This document shows, in pieces, positions 8,557-60,562 of a DNA stretch of 64,000 nucleotides. A program made the translations under genes and the position numbers. The DNA is from an uncultured delta proteobacterium (GTDB lineage: Bacteria; Desulfobacterota; Binatia; UBA9968), in contig CAVYTU010000010.1 of NCBI GenBank assembly GCA_963771465.1, forward strand, positions 32,359 through 96,358. Direction: 5' to 3'. Under the pieces are notes generated by a model. The model was not told the origin of the DNA. It did no database searches and worked only from the letters and a program-made list of their open reading frames with translations. Positions within the stretch are counted from its first letter, which is position 1; each line of letters starts with the position of its first letter.

Positions 8557-8952
8557 ATGGAGCAAAAGTATTTTTTCGGTTTGCTAGTTATCCTCGGGGC
8601 CGTCGCCTTCCGCATCGTCATGCACTTCGTCGACAAGGGCCGTATCAAAGAAGAAGTCGAGACGCGGCTCGGCCGGGTTGTGTCGATTACGTGGAATCCG
8701 TTCGGGCGTGGTTGGTTTTTCGAAAAAAGCGAGCGCCATTACGACGTGACGTATATCGACCGTTCCGGCGAGACGATCTCGACTAGCTGCAAGACGAGTT
8801 TTTTTACCGGAGTGTATTGGGCGGAAGGGCCGGGCGTGACTGAAACTCCGCCACGTTTCATCTCGCGCCATCTGTGTGGCAAGTGTGGTTACGCCCTCAA
8901 GACGGATTGGCGCGCCTGTCCAAACTGCGGCAAGACCACTGAGTTCGCATGA
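8557..8952 (+). CDS. Membrane-anchored hypothetical protein with C-terminal zinc ribbon
   Basis: N-terminal TM helix; CGKCG-x9-CPNCG at the C-terminus; stop overlaps the next start (ATGA). Confidence 0.75.
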   Translation: MEQKYFFGLLVILGAVAFRIVMHFVDKGRIKEEVETRLGRVVSITWNPFGRGWFFEKSERHYDVTYIDRSGETISTSCKTSFFTGVYWAEGPGVTETPPRFISRHLCGKCGYALKTDWRACPNCGKTTEFA

Positions 8953-9566
8953 TAATCAAGCACGACAAAGTTCTTGTCATTCGAATAGTCTGTGCGGTTT
9001 TTCTCATCGTTCAGCTCGTCGGCTGCGCCGGGAGCCCGCAAACGGGCGGAATCGAGAAACTTAGCTCGGCGCGGCTGGTGTTTTTGGCGCGCCACACCGA
9101 GCGTGAGTGGGAAGGCGAAGATCCGCCGCTGACTCGCATTGGCGAGGCGCGCGCGCAGGCGCTCGCTGCCGCGCTGCGCGACGCGGGCGTCACGGCGATT
9201 ATCACGACGCAGTGGCAACGCACGCGTGACACGGCCAAACCGCTGGCGACTATTCTAAGAATAACTCCCGAAGTCGTGCCGGTGTATGAGGGGAAGGCGG
9301 GGGAGAATTCGCTAGCGGTCGCTAATGCGGTGCGCCGCCACAGGGATGAAGTTGTCTTAGTGGTCGGCCACATCACGGTGACCGGTGTTATCGCCGCACT
9401 CGGCGGGCCACGCTTGCCGACGATCTGCGATAATGTTTTTTCCGATCTGTTTATGTTTGATCCATCGGCCGGCGACGGCGGACTGTTGCATTTGCACTAC
9501 GGCGCCGTCGAAGATATCTCACCGCAGTGCCGATTGACTGCGCCGCTTCGTGAAAACCGTGACTAG
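8949..9566 (+). CDS. Histidine phosphatase (SixA/phosphoglycerate mutase-like) family protein, probable lipoprotein
   Basis: LARHTE, DPPLT..GEARA, RTRDTA, VLVVGH motifs; LVGC lipobox-like. Confidence 0.8.
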   Translation: MIIKHDKVLVIRIVCAVFLIVQLVGCAGSPQTGGIEKLSSARLVFLARHTEREWEGEDPPLTRIGEARAQALAAALRDAGVTAIITTQWQRTRDTAKPLATILRITPEVVPVYEGKAGENSLAVANAVRRHRDEVVLVVGHITVTGVIAALGGPRLPTICDNVFSDLFMFDPSAGDGGLLHLHYGAVEDISPQCRLTAPLRENRD

Positions 9567-9576
9567 ATTTCATTTC

Positions 9577-9819
9577 AACTCGGATTCCGTAGTTGAAATT
9601 GAAGCAGCGAGCGAGGCGCGATCCTTCCGTAGTGAAGACAATGGGCCTGTGCCCCTGAGCAGGCAAGCGCCATCGTTGCCCAGCGAGCAATCCGTAGCCA
9701 TTGGCACGGCATGCCAACCCGGCAAATTGACTTTGCAACCGTAGCGTTGGGTGTCTTCACTACTCCAGGCTCGCACCTCGCTCGGCGCACGCAATTACTT
9801 CGACTGCGGAATCCGGGTT
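9577..9819. repeat. ~243-bp nested-palindromic dispersed repeat (MITE/REPIN-like), intact empty copy
   Basis: Terminal IR AACTCGGATTCCGTAGTTGAAATTG / CAATTACTTCGACTGCGGAATCCGGGTT. Inner IRs GAGCGAGGCGCGATCC / GGCTCGCACCTCGCTC and GTAGTGAAGACA / TGTCTTCACTAC. Homologous to 46498-46578 plus 47892-48051. Confidence 0.9.
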
Positions 9820-9874
9820 CAACACGGCGAAGAGAACATTCATTATGATTCGCTCGTTGTCGTGAGGAGAACGT

Positions 9875-11212
9875 TCAGGTCGGCATCATTTCAACATCAA
9901 TCGCCGCGCCGATTCCTGACTGCCAGCGGTAGACGACTAGGCCCAGCGCAATTCCAGTCAGGCTGAGGTAGCGAGTCGCGTCATTAGACAGTGCGATGCT
10001 GATTAGACAGAGCGCTACCGGCGGCAGGCTGATCGCGATTACGCCTGCCATACCCAACGGGATGCGATAGGGGCGCGCCATTTCAGGGCGCTTGATCCGG
10101 AGCCACACCAGGGCGGCAAATTCGAGTATCAGCGCGGCAGCGTAGAGAAACATGTCGACCTCAATCAAATCCTGGAAAGAAAATGGAATGAGCGCGGCGA
10201 CACCGATGCTATTCACCAAGATCGCTTTCCAGGGCGTGGCAAACTGAGGATGACGAACCGCGAGCGCGCGCGGCAGCATGGCGCGCTCGGCCATGGCGAA
10301 GGGCACGCGCGCGGAAGTGCACAAGAGCGCGTTCAACAATCCCGCGGCGCTGACCAAACCCGCCAAAGTTAACGCGCTGCCTAACCAGGGGCCGCCGATC
10401 AGCGCGGCGACTTTCGGGAAATCGCCTTCTTTCCACAATGATGAATTCGGATCGATGCCGACGCCGACGGCCACCGGTAGCAAGTAAGACGCCGTCACGA
10501 GCAGCACGGTGTAAATCATCGCGCGCGGATAAACGCGACTCGGGGTTGCCACCTCGCCGGCGCAACAACCTGCGTTGTCCCAGCCCGACGTGTTCCAAAG
10601 CAACGCGCTCAGCAGCAACGGCCAGCTGATATCTTTGCTGTGCTTCAACCACAGCGTCGGCTCGACTTGCGGCGCGCCGAGAACGACCATCGCGGCGAAG
10701 GGCGCGAGCACGAGTACGGTGAAGACGACCGAGCTTAAGCCGACGAGACGGGTGCCGCGAATGTTGAGCCAAGTGATGGCGCCGATGAGCGCGGCACCTA
10801 TGAGCCAGCGTTCGAGTGGCGCCATGTCGCCGCGCAGATAGGCGAGATAGTCGACAAACATCACGGGATAAAGCGCATTGTCGGCGAAGCTACAGAGCCA
10901 GCTCAACCAGCCTTCTTGAAAACCCCAGAATCGGCCGAACGCTTTCTCGACCCAGACGACGTAGCCGCCGTCCTCGGGCATCGCCGTTGATAGCTCGGCG
11001 GTCATCAGTGCCGTCGGTAAACTCCAGAGCCACGGCAGGATCAAAATTCCCAACAAGACGATTAGCGGGCCGCCGGCGCCGACCGCATCTTCCAGGCCGT
11101 ACGCGCCGCCGGCGACGCAGAAAAACGTTAGGCCGACCAATGCGCGCAGATTGAGAGTGCGCGGCAGCGGCCGGGCTGACAATTCTCTGTTGTGCAATGT
11201 CGCAGTTGTCAC
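9875..11212 (-). CDS. APC family amino acid/polyamine permease
   Basis: FFCVAGGAYGLED, AELSTAMPEDGGYVVWV, GWDNAG..AGEV..P; about 12 TMs. Confidence 0.92.
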   Translation of the reverse strand: MTTATLHNRELSARPLPRTLNLRALVGLTFFCVAGGAYGLEDAVGAGGPLIVLLGILILPWLWSLPTALMTAELSTAMPEDGGYVVWVEKAFGRFWGFQEGWLSWLCSFADNALYPVMFVDYLAYLRGDMAPLERWLIGAALIGAITWLNIRGTRLVGLSSVVFTVLVLAPFAAMVVLGAPQVEPTLWLKHSKDISWPLLLSALLWNTSGWDNAGCCAGEVATPSRVYPRAMIYTVLLVTASYLLPVAVGVGIDPNSSLWKEGDFPKVAALIGGPWLGSALTLAGLVSAAGLLNALLCTSARVPFAMAERAMLPRALAVRHPQFATPWKAILVNSIGVAALIPFSFQDLIEVDMFLYAAALILEFAALVWLRIKRPEMARPYRIPLGMAGVIAISLPPVALCLISIALSNDATRYLSLTGIALGLVVYRWQSGIGAAIDVEMMPT

Positions 11213-24749: not shown

Positions 24750-25148
24750 TCCCCGTTGATCGACGTGACGCCGTGGGTCAAGCAAGATTTGGCGCAGGAC
24801 CAAGAAGAATGGCTGCTGATGGGCAATGGCGCCGCGCGCGGCAATCCCGGTGATGCTGCTTGCGGCGCAGCGATCCGCGATGAAACCGACGCGCTGGTCA
24901 AGGGCCAGCCACTCGGCCGCAAAAGTATTCGCGGGTAAGGCGACTTTCAGCTTCTCGTGCGGCACTTGAACGGCAAATACCCCGTCAAAGATCAAAAGCT
25001 CAGGATACTTTATCTGCGCGCGCAGACTTTGTTGCGCCGGTTCGACTCCTATCGTATGGTTCATGTCTATCGCGAGATGAACGAAGTTGCCGATCGATTG
25101 GTCAATCACGGCATTGACGACGCGATGGGGAGAAACAGCACGGGCTAA
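24750..25148 (+). pseudogene. rnhA: Degenerate ribonuclease HI
   Basis: WLLMGNGAARGNPG (DG..RGNPG with the Asp lost) in one frame; LNGKYPVK..L...HVYREMNEVADRL in another. The TNN.AEY segment is missing. Confidence 0.75.
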
Positions 25149-25510
25149 AGTGGATTAAGCGATCGCGCTCGCGTTTCGGCGCGGGGGAGGAAAGTCCGGA
25201 CTCCACAGGACAGGGTGGCCGTTAACGGCGGCCCCGAGGAATCGGGGGAAAGTACCACAGAAAACATACCGCCTGCCGCTTCGGCGGCCGGTAAGGTTGA
25301 AAAGGCGAGGTAAGAGCTCACCGGTTCACCAGTGATGGTGGACGCATGGCAAACCCCACCCGGAGCAAGGCCAAATAGGAGGGTTGGGTGGTCCGCCCAT
25401 AGCCCTCGGGTATGGTCGCTCGACTCCTCGAGCAATCGAGGAGCAAGATGAATGATCGCTGTGATTCTGAACTACGAGTCACGACAGAATCCGGCTTACC
25501 GATCCACTTT
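25147..25510 (+). ncRNA. rnpB: RNase P RNA (type A)
   Basis: GAGGAAAGTCCGGACTCC, GGTAAGAGC, GGCAAACCCC..GGAGCAAG, ACAGAATCCGGCTTA; P1 AAAGTGGAT / ATCCACTTT. Confidence 0.97.
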
Positions 25511-25671
25511 AGCCCGAACGTTTCTCCGCGATTTGCGATCTTATCTGTGCGCAATCTTGCCGCGTCGATGCGATGGGCTCCTGAAGTCAGTTCATTGAGA
25601 TTTAAATCTCAATTAACTGCCGTTCAAGAAGGCATTGTCATCGCTATCCGGCGGAACATTCGCCTTTCATC

Positions 25672-25779
25672 CGCACGACTCAGGCAAGCTGACTTCGCAT
25701 CCGTAGAGTACGGTGTCTTAACTCCAGGCTGGTGCGTTGCACAGTCTGTAAAGTTACTCCAATCGCGGAATCCCGGGTT
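25672..25779. repeat. Decayed right half of the ~243-bp palindromic repeat
   Basis: GGCAAGCTGACTTCGCATCCGTAG..GGTGTCTT.ACTCCAGGCT...TTACTCCAATCGCGGAATCCCGGGTT aligns by eye with 9716-9819. Confidence 0.65.
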
Positions 25780-46379: not shown

Positions 46380-46645
46380 GGCAATTGTTCTCCTTTGCTT
46401 GGAATGCTCTGACGATAACAAATCGACGGCGAGGGCGCCATAGATTCTTACGCTATGTGCGAAGGACGTGCGCCGCACAAGGAATATCCATCGGATTAAC
46501 CCGGATTCCGCCGTTGAAATTGAAACACGAGCGAGGCGCGATCCTTCCGTGGTGAAGACAATGGGTCTGTGCCTCTGATTAATATGAAAGCGATGAAATC
46601 CGCAGCGTCGGTAGATAGACTGACGGCTGGAGGAGGAAATCGCAA

Positions 46646-47742
46646 ATGGAATATATCGCATTGGATGTTCACAAACATTACACCTGGGCACGAGTGGAAA
46701 ACGACCAAGGCCACAAGGTCTAGGAATGTAAATTGGCGCACCGTCGTGGAACGATTAAAAACTTTGCCAAGCAGTGGAGTCCCGGCACCCCGGTGGCAGT
46801 GGAGACAGTGGGCAACTGGTACTGGGTGGTCGATGAGATCGAGGCCGGCAAAGGATCGCCGCAATTGGTCAACGCACGACTGGCCAAGCTGATGATCGGC
46901 AGCGTGAACAAGAGCGACAAGCTCGATGCCAAGGGAATGAATCGTCTGCAGAGGGTAGGCACCCTGCCGACGGTGTGGATAGCGCCGTCTGCGGTTCGCG
47001 ATGCCCGCGAGTTGCCGCGCACCCGCATGGTGCTCAGCAAGCAAGAACCCAATTCAAGAACCGCATTCACGCCACCCTGGAGAAGTACGGGCTTAAGGTC
47101 GAAGGAGTCAGCAACGCGTTTGGTAAGGCAGGGCGACGGATCATCGAAGAGCTTTCCTCCAAGCTGCCGCCGCACACCGAGCAAGCCCTGCGCTTGATGC
47201 TCGACGAACTCGACCCTGTGCAAGCCAATCTCAAAACCATCAAAGGCCAAATGCCACAAGCCTTTGCTCCCCGTGCTGAGACGACTTATTTGCACAGCGA
47301 GCCGGGGGTGGGTGAGATGTTGGCGGTGGTGATCTGGACCGAGATTGGCACCATCGAGCGCTTTGGCCGAGCCGAACAGCTGGCAAGTTACGCAGGGCTG
47401 GTGCCACGGGAGCACTCCAGTGGCGGCAAGGTGCGCTATGGGCGGGTGAGAAAGGACGTGAATCTTTATCTCAAGTGGGCCTTTACCGAGGCGGCCAACA
47501 GCGCCGTGCTCAACCGCGAGCGCTGTGAGTACCGACACGTTGCCCGGCTGTATGAAAACGTCAAAGCCAGACGGGGTCACGGCAAGGCGATTATCGCGGT
47601 AGCGTGCCACCTGGCCGAGGCCGCTTTTTGGATGTTGAAAAAAGGAGAAAACTATCGCGAACCGATGTTGTCCACACAACGCTCAGCGCGGCCTGCTCAT
47701 GGGTCCACTGAGACCCGCCCTCTGATTGCGACAGCGCTGTGA
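46646..47742 (+). pseudogene. IS110 DEDD recombinase/transposase, disrupted
   Basis: GGAGG RBS; MEYIALDVHK, VAVET, KSDKLDA, ASYAGLVP..HSSGG, KAIIAVA..L. In-frame TAG at 46721 and a frameshift near 47045. Confidence 0.9.
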
Positions 47743-47870
47743 AATAATTCTCTGCCGCACAAGACCGAATAGATGAGTCCGATAACATCGGGTTAGAATG
47801 ACGGACGACGGGAATAGGTTTTACTCAGAAACATTCGAGGAGTGCTCGATTCGGGAATTAACAGCCACCT
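47680..47870 (+). ncRNA. Putative bridge/seek RNA of the IS1111-type element
   Basis: Stem CAGCGC/GCGCTG enclosing GCCTGCTCA (reverse complement of right target), a GGGTC/GACCC hairpin and CCTCTGA (left target). ATAGATGA (47769-76) matches the IS right end plus core. Boundaries are approximate. Confidence 0.75.
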
Positions 47871-48284
47871 TGACAAAGCTTTCATAGATGAGCAGGCAAC
47901 CGACATAGCTGCCTAGGAGCAATCCTTGGCAGCTATTAGAGCGGCTTGCCAATCCGGCAAAATGACATTACAACCGCAGCGTTGGGTGTCTTCACGACTC
48001 CAGGATCGCGCCTCACTCGGCGCATGCAATTACTCTAACTGTATCCGGGGTGAGCGGCGTCTTTCGGATCGGGCAATTTTCTCGGCTATCCGCCGCGTAC
48101 GCCGTTAGCGCGGCACGCGCACCTCGCCGAGGCTATCCTTTTCGATACGAACAGATTCGTTCTTCATTAGACTTGCTCCTCTCTCAATTTTGCCTGTGCG
48201 GTTCAGGAATTGAAATATCGGTGGAGAGATCGCTACGTAGACGGCAACTTCTAAGCCGCGTCGAACTCGCGAAAAGATCGGAGA

Positions 48285-60210: not shown

Positions 60211-60562
60211 GGGGGCGATATGGGTTCGACGAGGGCGGGAAGACAAGGTGGCATGCCGGGGTTCTGTTATCCCGTTAAACAAACAGACTGCAATTTAAAC
60301 GCAGATAATTTTGAATACCAACTAGCTGCTTAATCGCCGCTAGCGTCCTACCGGTTTTCTCCCGCGGGATCGGATAGGATGTCATTCAGTGGGATGGGCC
60401 GATTTTCCTGCCGGAGGGGATGAGGCTGAGATCTAAACCGGATAGATTCGCGAGACCCAGCCGTTGGGGGCTTGCGGAGCGAGATCAAAACAACGGCTAA
60501 GCATGTAGTCATACTTGACGGAAAACCTTCGGACGGGGGTTCGATTCCCCCCGCCTCCACCA
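60211..60562 (+). ncRNA. ssrA: tmRNA; tag peptide (A)ADNFEYQLAA at 60301-60333
   Basis: 5' GGGGGCG..GGTTCGAC; 3' GGGGGTTCGATTCCCCCCGCCTCCACCA with G3-U pair; follows smpB. Confidence 0.97.

Follow-up and report, generated by a model that had tools for sequence, protein, structure and literature searches.

A nested palindrome of about 243 bp lies between two genes in the window, by which we mean the whole stretch of 64,000 nucleotides analysed here from an uncultured delta proteobacterium, and copies of it recur elsewhere in the same DNA, one of them split by an insertion sequence (IS). The question that this locus raises is what kind of element it is, by what means it spread, and what drew the IS into it. 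An earlier note, made from the sequence alone, had named a lineage-specific MITE, a REPIN-like repeat and a structured non-coding RNA as candidates. The reading that we prefer, with a probability of roughly 0.88, is that the repeat is a MITE of 239-242 bp which was moved in trans by an IS1380-family transposase, and whose loop is targeted by an RNA-guided IS of the IS110/IS1111 type.

Copy 1, the best-preserved MITE copy of the source genome, occupies positions 9579 to 9817 of the plus strand (239 bp; nhmmer 271.8 bits), with its ends set by the terminal repeat motif. The profile search itself extended over 9577-9821, and the bounds first proposed, 9577 and 9819, are replaced by the true ends at 9579 and 9817. 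The element begins with the 15-nt terminal inverted repeat CTCGGATTCCGTAGT (9579-9593, plus strand) and ends with its counterpart ACTGCGGAATCCGGG (9803-9817, minus strand). The family consensus of this repeat, CCCGGATTCCGCAGT, stands at both ends in inverted order (CCCGG...CCGGG), and the same 15-mer ends an IS1380-family IS in sister genomes. Directly outside lie the two copies of a target duplication, TTCAA at 9574-9578 and TTCAA at 9818-9822, which on direct reading are identical at 5/5 positions. The AAC...GTT ends, which had suggested a likeness to attC sites, belong in part to this duplicated target, the real ends being CCCGG and CCGGG. A first reading of the flanks, as a 3-bp TNA duplication with an IS5-type partner, was dropped, since the IS ends place the start of the element at CCCGG and the duplication is therefore 5 bp long.

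The nested inverted repeats and the rod-like fold described previously are indeed present. The terminal arms of copy 1 measure 24 nt (9574-9597/9799-9822, 83%) and the inner arms 33 nt (9608-9640/9752-9784, 85%), and the predicted shape is a long rod. Folded as single-stranded DNA, the plus strand of the 239-nt element reaches -64.5 kcal/mol against -40.9+/-3.8 for shuffled sequences (z -6.26), and the minus strand folded as RNA reaches -126.1 against -87.2+/-5.3 (z -7.34); 0/200 shuffles were as good in either case. The centre carries a hairpin at 9645-9664 (plus strand), read directly as GCCTG (9645-9649) and CAGGC (9660-9664) around a 10-nt loop. This hairpin had been said to hold the IS target, which agrees with its being the insertion site of an IS110/IS1111-type IS in other MITE copies, the IS of copy 2 standing after ...CCTCTGA; copy 1 reads CCCCTGA against CCTCTGA in the IS guide. 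Copy 1 is intergenic, as had been claimed: a histidine-phosphatase-like gene stops on one side of it (at 9566) and an opposite-strand amino-acid permease gene on the other (at 9875), the two forming a convergent pair at 8949-11212. The companion claim, that there is no convincing ORF, needs the qualification that ORFs of 45-95 aa overlap the copy in several frames. These ORFs are probably chance ones, and the MITE, the copies of which are set apart by indels, is predicted to be non-coding.

The three copies reported for the window were recovered, although the family proved to be far larger than three. Copy 2 consists of a left part at 46500-46578 (plus strand; nhmmer model positions 2-84), which runs up to the IS insertion point ...CCTCTGA, and a right part at 47892-48049 (plus strand; model positions 81-246); the corresponding profile-search extents are 46498-46579 and 47889-48050, and the outer flanks form no duplication (ATTAA vs GTGAG). 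The tetraloop-capped stem noted for this copy was confirmed by direct reading as ATAGCTGCC-T-AGGA-GCAA-TCCT-T-GGCAGCTAT. Copy 3 is a decayed right-hand part at 25628-25777 (plus strand; model positions 84-247; nhmmer 50.4 bits; profile-search extent 25628-25778), previously placed at 25672-25779; the RNase P RNA gene (25147-25514) ends some 115 bp upstream of it. Across the 6.9-Mb source genome we counted 60 non-overlapping MITE loci, and in 22 of these 200 or more of the 250 model positions are covered. The copies stand in both orientations with no evident bias, and by a crude ORF method 11 of the 22 well-kept ones have convergent ORFs on either side, 9 have tandem ORFs and 2 divergent ones. 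The distance between termini is 239-242 bp in 30/37 measurable copies from relatives and 223-238 bp in the other 7. The median pairwise identity of the copies is 68.7% in the source genome, whereas it reaches 92.9% in sister genome G017.

On the basis of its terminal inverted repeats, its 5-bp target duplication, its many dispersed copies, an orthologous site that is empty in sisters and termini that recur on a partner IS, the repeat is a lineage-restricted MITE, and the suggestion of a lineage-specific MITE in the earlier note holds. A check of target duplications and of copy number in the genome and its relatives, which that note had advised, bears directly on this. Both ends were found in 37 of 40 MITE copies fetched from relatives, and identical 5-bp flanks border 26 of these 37, where 10,000 re-pairings of the flanks gave 3.06 on average and never more than 10. 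In the source genome, identical flanks were found at 4/15 copies, copy 1 among them, where re-pairing gave a mean of 0.48 and a maximum of 4. All 30 exact duplications have T at position 2 and A at position 4 (30/30 each), which gives the consensus NTNAN. Signs of recent multiplication come from sister genome G006, where 80-nt internal probes match 7 places each, at least 6/7 of them at 96-100% identity (one right-hand match has 77%), and where contigs end inside near-identical MITE copies. The spacer that holds copy 1 has its flanking genes adjacent and no MITE by profile (E<=1e-3) in 11/11 sister loci, so that only the source genome has the MITE at this site; even the closest of these spacers, in G024 (genes 79-81% identical), is too diverged for base-by-base alignment, and MITE absence is all that can be stated for it.

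The range of the MITE is narrow. Searches with two different queries found it in 11/24 and 14/30 other genomes of the genus, whereas 0/16 genomes representing two further families of the same order had it. When 185,579 species genomes were scanned for an exact 20-mer, 10 loci came up, 8 of which were confirmed by profile; the exact matches in Novispirillum and in a euryarchaeote MAG do not otherwise resemble the MITE and are put down to chance. Records of the MITE-bearing genus are labelled variously as Syntrophobacter, Syntrophobacteraceae, Deltaproteobacteria and Chloroflexota. MITEs are known from other bacteria, examples being the Correia elements of Neisseria and the ERIC-type repeats. 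The present repeat resembles such elements in being small, non-coding and dispersed, with terminal inverted repeats, a duplication of fixed length, a long hairpin, a place after genes and subfamilies of differing age. It differs from the Correia and ERIC-type repeats in forming its own sequence family, in belonging to one uncultured genus and in having an IS1380-family IS as partner.

The same observations weigh on the proposal that the element is a host-encoded, multicopy gene for a structured non-coding RNA and not mobile DNA. The strong fold (z -6.26 and -7.34), complementarity that is kept across subfamilies and the presence of its sequences in metatranscriptome libraries would suit such a gene. 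However, a gene of this kind would not be expected to carry 5-bp duplications at 26/37 copies of relatives, to be missing from the orthologous site in 11/11 sister genomes, to occur in near-identical copies that break the G006 assembly, or to have termini in common with transposase-bearing IS. Furthermore, we found no promoter-like site and no evident orientation bias, copies lying in both orientations, and Rfam gave no match over the element, neither at gathering score nor at E<=1. We therefore regard an RNA gene, as raised in the earlier note, as very improbable.

A scan of five genomes with the terminal 17-mer showed that most of the opposed pairs examined lie about 222-225 bp apart, and one wide pair was noted, at G006:C151:1853-3398. 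It encloses a 483-aa ORF that matches NF033539, the IS1380 family transposase model, with 234.1 bits (cut-off 180), and PF13701 with 1.4e-39. This IS of 1546 bp (1.55 kb) has a single ORF, 15-nt terminal repeats and the flanks TTAAG/TTAAG. Among the 31 genus genomes, four others (G041, G044, G011 and G045) have homologues 79-84% identical to it, and in all five IS copies the 15-nt MITE termini stand about 1546 bp apart (<=3 mismatches allowed); one of the five is flanked by TTGAA/TTGAA. Of the four copies in which duplications could be judged, two have exact ones, one matches at 4/5 positions and one has none. Members of the IS1380 family are about 1.5-2 kb long, with one ORF, short terminal repeats and a 4-5-bp duplication. 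The partner IS of the sister genomes is like them in its length of 1546 bp, its one DDE ORF (NF033539), its repeats of about 15 nt starting with CCC and its 5-bp duplication, whereas the MITE of the window has no transposase and has the termini alone in common with the family. For comparison, one family member, IS1247, is entered in Table 2 of PMC3281130 with 1672 bp, IR 16/13 and a DR of 5 bp.

The earlier note had recommended looking for an autonomous IS that ends in ACCCGGATTCCG. Such an element thus exists in sister genomes, as the IS1380-family element just described, but the source genome, which is 99.4% complete, has no IS1380-type homologue by tblastn or by the NF033539 profile. In the absence of such a transposase, the MITE copies there are old orphans, with a median identity of 69%. 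Distant IS1380-like matches (23-35% identity) in G009, G015, G018, G014 and G008 are without MITE termini and were set aside as partners.

We infer that the IS1380-type transposase is the mobiliser of the MITE. The case for some other transposase, with the shared 15-nt termini as a relic or a coincidence, draws on the observation that the MITE and the IS have at most 20 nt in common, at the termini, with nothing internal, and on an uneven distribution. Of the five genomes with a close IS, G006 is the only one with the MITE: G011 gave no MITE match with either query, and G041, G044 and G045 gave none with the G006 query, the sole query used there. Conversely, the MITE-rich G009 and G017 have no close IS homologue in assemblies that are 93% and 91% complete and lie in 670 and 710 contigs. 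Against this, the same 15-mer ends the MITE and all five IS copies (<=3 mismatches), and both kinds of element make 5-bp duplications at similar sites (TTAAG and TTGAA for the IS, NTNAN for the MITE). In addition, G006, the one genome with a recent burst of the MITE, holds an intact IS. A control pattern gave 0-1 matches per strand per genome, and an inverted 15-mer at both ends of both kinds of element would not be expected by chance. Taken together, these points make mobilisation by another transposase improbable.

A probable course of events for the IS1380-driven MITE can accordingly be outlined in conditional terms. The DDE transposase, the source of which would be a 1.55-kb IS whose 15-nt termini (CCCGGATTCCGCAGT) are those of the MITE, would bind both MITE ends and insert the element at NTNAN, mostly TTNAA, duplicating 5 bp. 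The source genome would later have lost the transposase, leaving its approximately 60 copies immobile and decaying, with younger subfamilies persisting in sister genomes and the surviving copies found mainly directly after gene ends. An IS110/IS1111-type IS, dead in the window, would be led into the central hairpin loop by an RNA that its 3' non-coding region encodes; two short segments of this RNA may each pair with one strand of CCTCTGA^GCAGGC.

Repeats that are palindromic, extragenic and targets of IS110-family IS are also found among REP sequences and attC sites, and the element shares all three properties with them. A REPIN-type repeat spread by a RAYT (a Y1 transposase), or an attC-like recombination site, was accordingly considered. 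The source genome has two Y1_Tnp genes (PF01797, 48.4 bits each), but neither locus has the element (nhmmer, E<=1) or its termini nearby, and the 5-bp duplications and DDE-type terminal repeats fit neither kind. An attC site is a short imperfect palindrome with conserved core sites, found at cassette boundaries beside an integrase, and is shorter than 239 bp; the present element is too long, ends in CCCGG/CCGGG and stands singly between unrelated genes. Its target duplications, its DDE-type termini, its greater length and the lack of a linked Y1 transposase hence separate it from REPIN/RAYT systems and attC sites alike, and we give these two possibilities hardly any credence, contrary to the likenesses drawn at first.

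The IS in copy 2 occupies 46579-47891 on the plus strand (1313 bp, with the core TGA counted once) and carries ATGAAAGC / GCTTTCAT as subterminal inverted repeats. A stop codon and a frameshift disrupt its transposase gene, in which PF02371 alone is seen, on the C-terminal piece. Full-length relatives that are 80-88% identical have an intact 346-aa gene; one intact relative scores 233.6 bits with NF033542 (cut-off 140), matches both PF01548 and PF02371, contains the motif GLVPREHSSG and has its ORF ending 209 nt before the IS end. In the source genome, 2/2 copies of the IS stand at model position 83/84 of a MITE, and the guide segments match the loop there, which bears out the view of the MITE as a landing pad for the IS. 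A putative target-binding part of a seekRNA lies at 47690-47725 (plus strand) and consists of GGCCTGCTCA, a hairpin GGGTC..GACCC and then CCTCTGA. For the target CCTCTGA^GCAGGCC, GGCCTGCTCA is complementary to the top strand (core and right flank), and CCTCTGA is identical to the left flank and core. This arrangement recurs in relatives. In 7/7 copies from three genomes, a 7-mer some 175 nt ahead of the right end is identical to the left flank and core of that same IS copy, and in eight copies the adjacent upstream segment is the reverse complement of core and right flank over unbroken runs of 9, 8, 8, 7, 5, 5, 3 and 9 nt. In IS variants from G018 and G006 both guide segments covary with the target, and relatives 87%, 80% and 72% identical have guide segments rewritten for different hairpin targets. 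We infer from these sequence relationships that the guide probably works as RNA, as in published seekRNA systems. A candidate donor-end guide, ATAGATGA (47769-47776, plus strand), is identical to the final 8 nt of the right end of the IS. Its parts ATAG and ATGA are present in all six aligned copies, with a 1-nt insertion between them in L116 (MAFFT), and the first letter of the 8-mer is variable, being G for A in L100.

PMC11187229 describes IS1111-family elements with seekRNA (ISEc11, ISPa11 and ISKpn4), a transposase of 330-350 aa with the motif GL-P----SG, subterminal inverted repeats and, following tnp, a long stretch of non-coding sequence, as well as a seekRNA order in which the top-strand match lies 5' of the bottom-strand match, the two overlapping in the target. 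The window IS and its relatives conform in their 346-aa DEDD transposase, the GLVPREHSSG motif, the subterminal repeats, the 209-nt downstream region and the order of the guides. They differ in having as target a MITE hairpin loop (in G018, another small hairpin repeat), in that the window copy is dead, and in being known from sequence alone. PMC12288879 gives ISPpu9 of Pseudomonas putida as an IS110-family element that inserts into REP sequences; the present IS is likewise site-specific for a repeated extragenic palindrome, but one that is a transposon with target duplications and not a REP.

These assignments have consequences beyond the locus. The repeat, which accounts for dozens of loci in genomes of an uncultured genus from soil and breaks their assemblies, now has a name and a proposed mechanism. 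The pairing of a MITE with an IS1380-family transposase is documented, and among the papers listed for IS1380 with MITE we found no such MITE or pairing in a title or abstract. The series of IS1111-type elements with rewritten guides also backs the published seekRNA model from sequence alone. At the same time, the MITE and its guided IS are unremarkable representatives of mobile DNA of known kinds, and the general understanding of such elements is unchanged.

The MITE arms are kept and complementary for about 70 bp past the shared termini, and transposase binding does not obviously explain this conservation. The host might in addition have exapted the MITE, whose hairpin, in RNA or in DNA, would serve at gene ends as a two-way transcription stop or as a protector of mRNA 3' ends, with selection keeping arms and loops. 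RNAalifold on the MAFFT alignment of 49 copies found almost no consensus structure (-2.1), and the arm pairs were taken from single-sequence folds. Over 46 such pairs in the 49 copies, 87.7% of pairings are standard, against 31.7-40.0% when the partner is slid by 1-3 columns, a control that favours structure by construction because the pair set came from the same sequences' own folds; 300 column shuffles gave a mean of 82.6% and a maximum of 83.4%. Several pairs switch on both sides between subfamilies (e.g., A-U 21 / C-G 11 / U-A 10), but pairs changed on both sides number 20/46, barely above the slid versions (11-19), and the independent events are few because the subfamilies derive from few master copies. 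Also kept across subfamilies are the loop ..CCTCT(G/A)AGC.. and several blocks, GACTTTGAAAC among them.

The placement of 11/22 well-kept copies between convergent ORFs, by the crude ORF method, would also accord with a role at gene ends; however, an AT-rich NTNAN site preference together with purging from promoters would yield the same placement. The search for terminator-like T runs found 0, and the copies lie in both orientations. Contigs from RNA libraries reach from both neighbouring genes into the arms (9436-9602 and 9740-9888), but they reveal neither transcription nor its level or ends, and they stop inside the arms, as contigs broken by a repeat would. Among the contigs from four read runs, none spans copy 1 and no joint removes exactly the MITE; the skip of 9657-9763 in X10 is another MITE copy with a shorter centre. 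On this evidence we consider host use of the MITE unlikely. Equally doubtful is a nesting in three layers, in which a host gene end would hold a selected MITE hairpin as a safe harbour, on which a seekRNA-guided IS would have specialised in turn; if it were true, changes in the MITE loop would be followed over time by changes in the IS guide. A comparison of the strands gave 52 G·U against 113 A·C cells on the plus strand; three columns common to the two G009 subfamilies account for most of the excess, and with so few independent events the counts are no strand test.

The profile that we built from the genome copies of this palindromic repeat, here called the MITE, recovers all three copies that the earlier note had placed in the window: copy 1 at 9577-9821, copy 2 in two halves at 46498-46579 and 47889-48050, and copy 3, a right-hand fragment, at 25628-25778. 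The nested palindrome described there is a real and non-trivial structure. Inverted repeats are nested within 9574-9822, with 24-nt terminal arms (83%) and 33-nt inner arms (85%), and copy 1, whose true ends are 9579 and 9817 (239 nt), folds into one long rod with a branched centre. Its free energy as single-stranded DNA (+ strand) is -64.5 kcal/mol, against -40.9 ± 3.8 in 200 shuffles (z -6.26), and as RNA (- strand) -126.1 against -87.2 ± 5.3 (z -7.34), with no shuffle equal in either case. Direct reading also confirmed the GCCTG/CAGGC hairpin, the insertion sequence (IS) inside its loop in copy 2, and the 9+4-bp stem with a GCAA cap in that copy. The Rfam check proposed in the note was negative, as no family matched the MITE even at E ≤ 1; across the whole window, the only matches were RNase P RNA (25147-25514) and tmRNA (60211-60562). 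A gap of about 115 bp separates the decayed half MITE (25628-25777) from the RNase P RNA gene upstream of it.

The limits of the MITE were set by flank alignment combined with the ends of a partner IS from sister genomes: it starts with CCCGG, finishes with CCGGG, and has 5-bp direct repeats on either side. The letters AAC...GTT, once compared to attC sites, are the edge of this 5-bp duplication, and that likeness falls away. Among 40 copies from the congeneric genomes G003, G006, G009, G012, G017, G020, and G023, a 15-nt motif placed both ends in 37 (the other 3, with no end found, were dropped), and 26 of these 37 have identical 5-bp flanks, compared with a mean of 3.06 and a maximum of 10 when left flanks were matched with right flanks at random 10,000 times. 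In the source genome, 19 loci reach both model ends; after setting aside 4 without a detectable end, the two flanks are identical in 4 of the 15 scored, against a mean of 0.48 and a maximum of 4 on random re-pairing, and copy 1, with TTCAA/TTCAA, is among these 4. The consensus of the 30 exact duplications is NTNAN: all 30 have T in second and A in fourth place, and TTCAA and TTGAA are the most frequent (6 each).

In the 6.9-Mb source assembly (19 contigs), copy 1 gave 72 blastn hits and nhmmer 71 at E ≤ 1e-3. Once the reverse-strand self-matches of the palindrome were removed, 60 loci remained. At least 200 of the 250 model positions are covered in 22 of them, 18 of these 22 with a score of 100 bits or more. 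The copies of this genome are old, with a median identity of 68.7% in pairwise comparison of 13 full ones. The median is 92.9% in G017. In G006, 80-nt internal probes each found 7 places, at least 6 of 7 at 96-100% identity and one right-hand match at 77%, and several contigs stop inside a MITE copy, as expected for a recent burst. Queried with the window copy, relatives were found in 11 of 24 other genomes of the genus and in none of 16 genomes from two other families of the order; the G006 copy detected the MITE in 14 of 30 genus genomes. The unpublished genome G005 is part of the genus tallies only (MITE searches, termini scan, and IS homologues), and no claim is built on it. Across 185,579 species, with one genome per species, an exact right-arm 20-mer occurs at 10 loci, 8 of which the profile confirms, in MAGs labelled Syntrophobacter sp., Syntrophobacteraceae, Deltaproteobacteria, and Chloroflexota. 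Loci in a euryarchaeote MAG and in Novispirillum were dropped, as they bear no further likeness to the MITE.

On one side of copy 1, a histidine-phosphatase-like gene ends at 9566; on the other, an amino-acid permease gene of the opposite strand ends at 9875. The two genes are also adjacent in 11 sister genomes, and in 11/11 the profile detects no MITE in the spacer, which is too short to hold one. These sister spacers have diverged too far for an empty site to be aligned base by base, so that the absence of the MITE alone stands. The MITE is a transposon and has moved. Its duplications, termini, spread, and absence at the orthologous spacer bear out the guess of a MITE in the earlier note, and the checks of copy number and duplications suggested there gave the 60 loci and the 5-bp repeats. 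The MITE adds a new family to a well-known kind of mobile DNA.

The terminal 17-mer (≤2 mismatches), scanned in five sister genomes, gave 3 to 65 hits per genome, compared with 0-1 per strand for a control pattern. Most of the opposed pairs noted lie about 222-225 bp apart; the one wide pair noted, G006:C151:1853-3398, spans about 1546 bp, is flanked by TTAAG/TTAAG, and has a single 483-aa ORF that matches NCBIfam NF033539 'IS1380 family transposase' at 234.1 bits (cut-off 180) and Pfam PF13701 at 1.4e-39. Homologues 79-84% identical to this transposase were found in G041, G044, G011, and G045 (31 genus genomes searched), that of G045 with one TAG. All five IS copies carry the MITE 15-mer (≤3 mismatches) at both ends, about 1546 bp apart; the duplication is exact in G006 (TTAAG) and G041 (TTGAA), 4/5 in G011, none in G044, and cut by the contig start in G045. 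IS1247, an IS1380-family element, is given with IR 16/13 and a 5-bp DR (PMC3281130), the same repeat and duplication pattern as in our IS. On these shared ends, where MITE and IS have at most 20 nt in common, the partner of the MITE is probably an IS1380-family transposase since lost from the source genome. Neither tblastn nor the IS1380 family profile found a relative of the 483-aa protein in that genome (99.4% complete), and its MITEs are therefore orphans. Thus, the autonomous IS sought in the earlier note exists in sister genomes and is missing from the genome in which the MITE was noticed. Some observations speak against a simple pairing of MITE and IS. Of the five IS-bearing genomes, the MITE was seen only in G006: G011 has no match to the window or G006 query, and G041, G044, and G045 have none to the G006 query, the single one used there. 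Conversely, the MITE-rich G009 and G017 lack a close IS, in fragmentary assemblies 93% and 91% complete, and the distant IS1380-like hits lack MITE termini. Elsewhere in the source genome, Y1 transposase (PF01797) genes at C3:16356-16682 and C17:922970-923296 (L130, L131), with identical scores and open frames of 290 and 287 aa, are unrelated to the MITE; they may belong to the IS200/IS605 or RAYT type and have repeats of their own.

The IS of copy 2 is of the IS110/IS1111 type and spans 46579-47891, or 1313 bp with one TGA counted in. A stop codon and a frameshift interrupt the reading frame of its transposase, of which the C-terminal part matches PF02371. The source genome has a single further copy of this IS, at C15:1048739-1049402, which is internally rearranged and lies inside another MITE; both occupy MITE model position 83/84, and the description of the MITE as an IS landing pad was correct. 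This second locus (C15:1048583-1049474) is internally deleted and partly inverted, with query pieces 1-236, 851-1166, and 1216-1330. Full-length relatives were found at 80-88% identity over 1313 bp in G018, where seven loci were examined, and at 72% in G006. One G018 copy has an intact 346-aa gene, ending 209 nt before the IS end, that matches NF033542 'IS110 family RNA-guided transposase' at 233.6 bits (cut-off 140) as well as PF01548 and PF02371. None of these full-length relatives is in a MITE; those of G018 lie in the loop of another small hairpin repeat, ..TGTCAT(T/G)CTGA^GC....GCGAAG(A/C)ATCT.. (^, insertion point), which looks like a second REP-like family. At its loci (L099, L107, L112, L114, L115, L116, L117) the flanks form the hairpin ..CAT(T/G)CT GA^GC....GCGA AG(A/C)ATC.., whose stem varies in step, ATTCT/AGAAT or ATGCT/AGCAT, between the targets of two IS subgroups. 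Near copy 2, a 20-aa ORF (MKNESVRIEKDSLGEVRVPR; 48105-48167, - strand) is preceded by GGAG, similar to a ribosome-binding site, and stops some 55 bp short of the right MITE end; it seems to resemble the N-terminus of class II fumarase/aspartase and may be a gene stump. This possible stump and the mismatched outer flanks of copy 2 (ATTAA and GTGAG) suggest a deletion, or recombination between two MITE copies.

In 7/7 IS copies examined, a 7-mer about 175 nt before the right end equals the copy's own left flank plus core (CCTCTGA, ATTCTGA, ATGCTGA, and AACCTGA were seen). Close upstream of it, on the far side of a small hairpin that is also conserved, lies a second segment, reverse-complementary to the core and the right flank together: GGCCTGCTCA in the source genome (target TGA^GCAGGC, 9 nt), GCGCGGCTCA in a first G018 group of four copies (target TGA^GCCGC..; 8, 8, 7, and 5 nt), GTTTCGCTCA in a second group of two with a weaker match (5 and 3 contiguous nt), and CGGCATCCA in G006 (its own junction, 9 nt). 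The right end of the IS itself recurs farther along as the 8-mer ATAGATGA; six aligned copies all read ATAG and ATGA there, with a 1-nt insertion placed between them by the alignment at locus L116 and a variable first letter at L100. The seekRNAs of the IS1111 family are described as lying in a non-coding region downstream of tnp, in elements with subterminal inverted repeats, and as having two overlapping target matches, the top-strand match first (Siddiquee et al., PMC11187229). The window IS and its relatives have the same layout, and targeting of the MITE would follow this published RNA-guided mechanism. The exact 13-mer target occurs 3 times in the source genome, and one RNA-library and two DNA metagenome contigs run from the MITE left arm into the IS left end at the same position.

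The region 8900-10400 is present in soil, rhizosphere, and groundwater metagenomes (20 rows from 16 studies, 10 rows with at least half of the sampled words). In one DNA run the summed contig depth over the MITE is up to about 100x that of its flanks, a sign of nothing more than the abundance of the family in that run. RNA-library contigs extend from each gene flanking copy 1 into the MITE arms; being contigs, they are uninformative on transcription and ends.

The long covarying rod with its conserved loops is the sole unexplained feature of the MITE. We aligned 49 full copies and retained pairs found in at least 40% of single-sequence folds, which gave 46 arm pairs and 2254 cells: 1898 Watson-Crick, 52 G·U, 113 A·C, 160 other, and 31 gapped. 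Standard pairs make up 87.7% of ungapped cells, compared with 31.7-40.0% when the partner is slid by 1-3 columns and a mean of 82.6% (maximum 83.4%) in 300 within-column shuffles; the comparison is biased towards the structure, which was derived from the same 49 sequences. Pairs changed on both sides between subfamilies number 20 of 46, a count that discriminates poorly because slid versions reach 11-19. The A·C excess on the + strand, which would read as G·U on the - strand, is due mostly to three columns that G009 subfamilies have inherited, and it settles nothing; at alignment columns 47/209, 49/207, and 50/206, about 15-19 copies have three close arm-helix A·C mismatches that would be G·U wobbles on the opposite strand. 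Given these pairing figures, arm complementarity is kept across subfamily divergence, far past the 15 nt common with the partner IS, and may reflect transposition needs, arm-to-arm correction, or host use. A host or RNA function is unlikely. A search for promoter-like or terminator-like sites in the MITE found none, and both orientations are seen among the copies. When ORFs are called crudely from stop to stop, the neighbours of the 22 well-kept loci (2 of them IS-split halves with the IS as neighbour) are convergent in 11, tandem in 9, and divergent in 2. Shorter variants (G024:C597:7022-7192, G017:C378:2008-2212, and G000:C5:96784-96984) lack much of the variable centre and keep both arms, and the arms alone seem enough for the MITE to persist.
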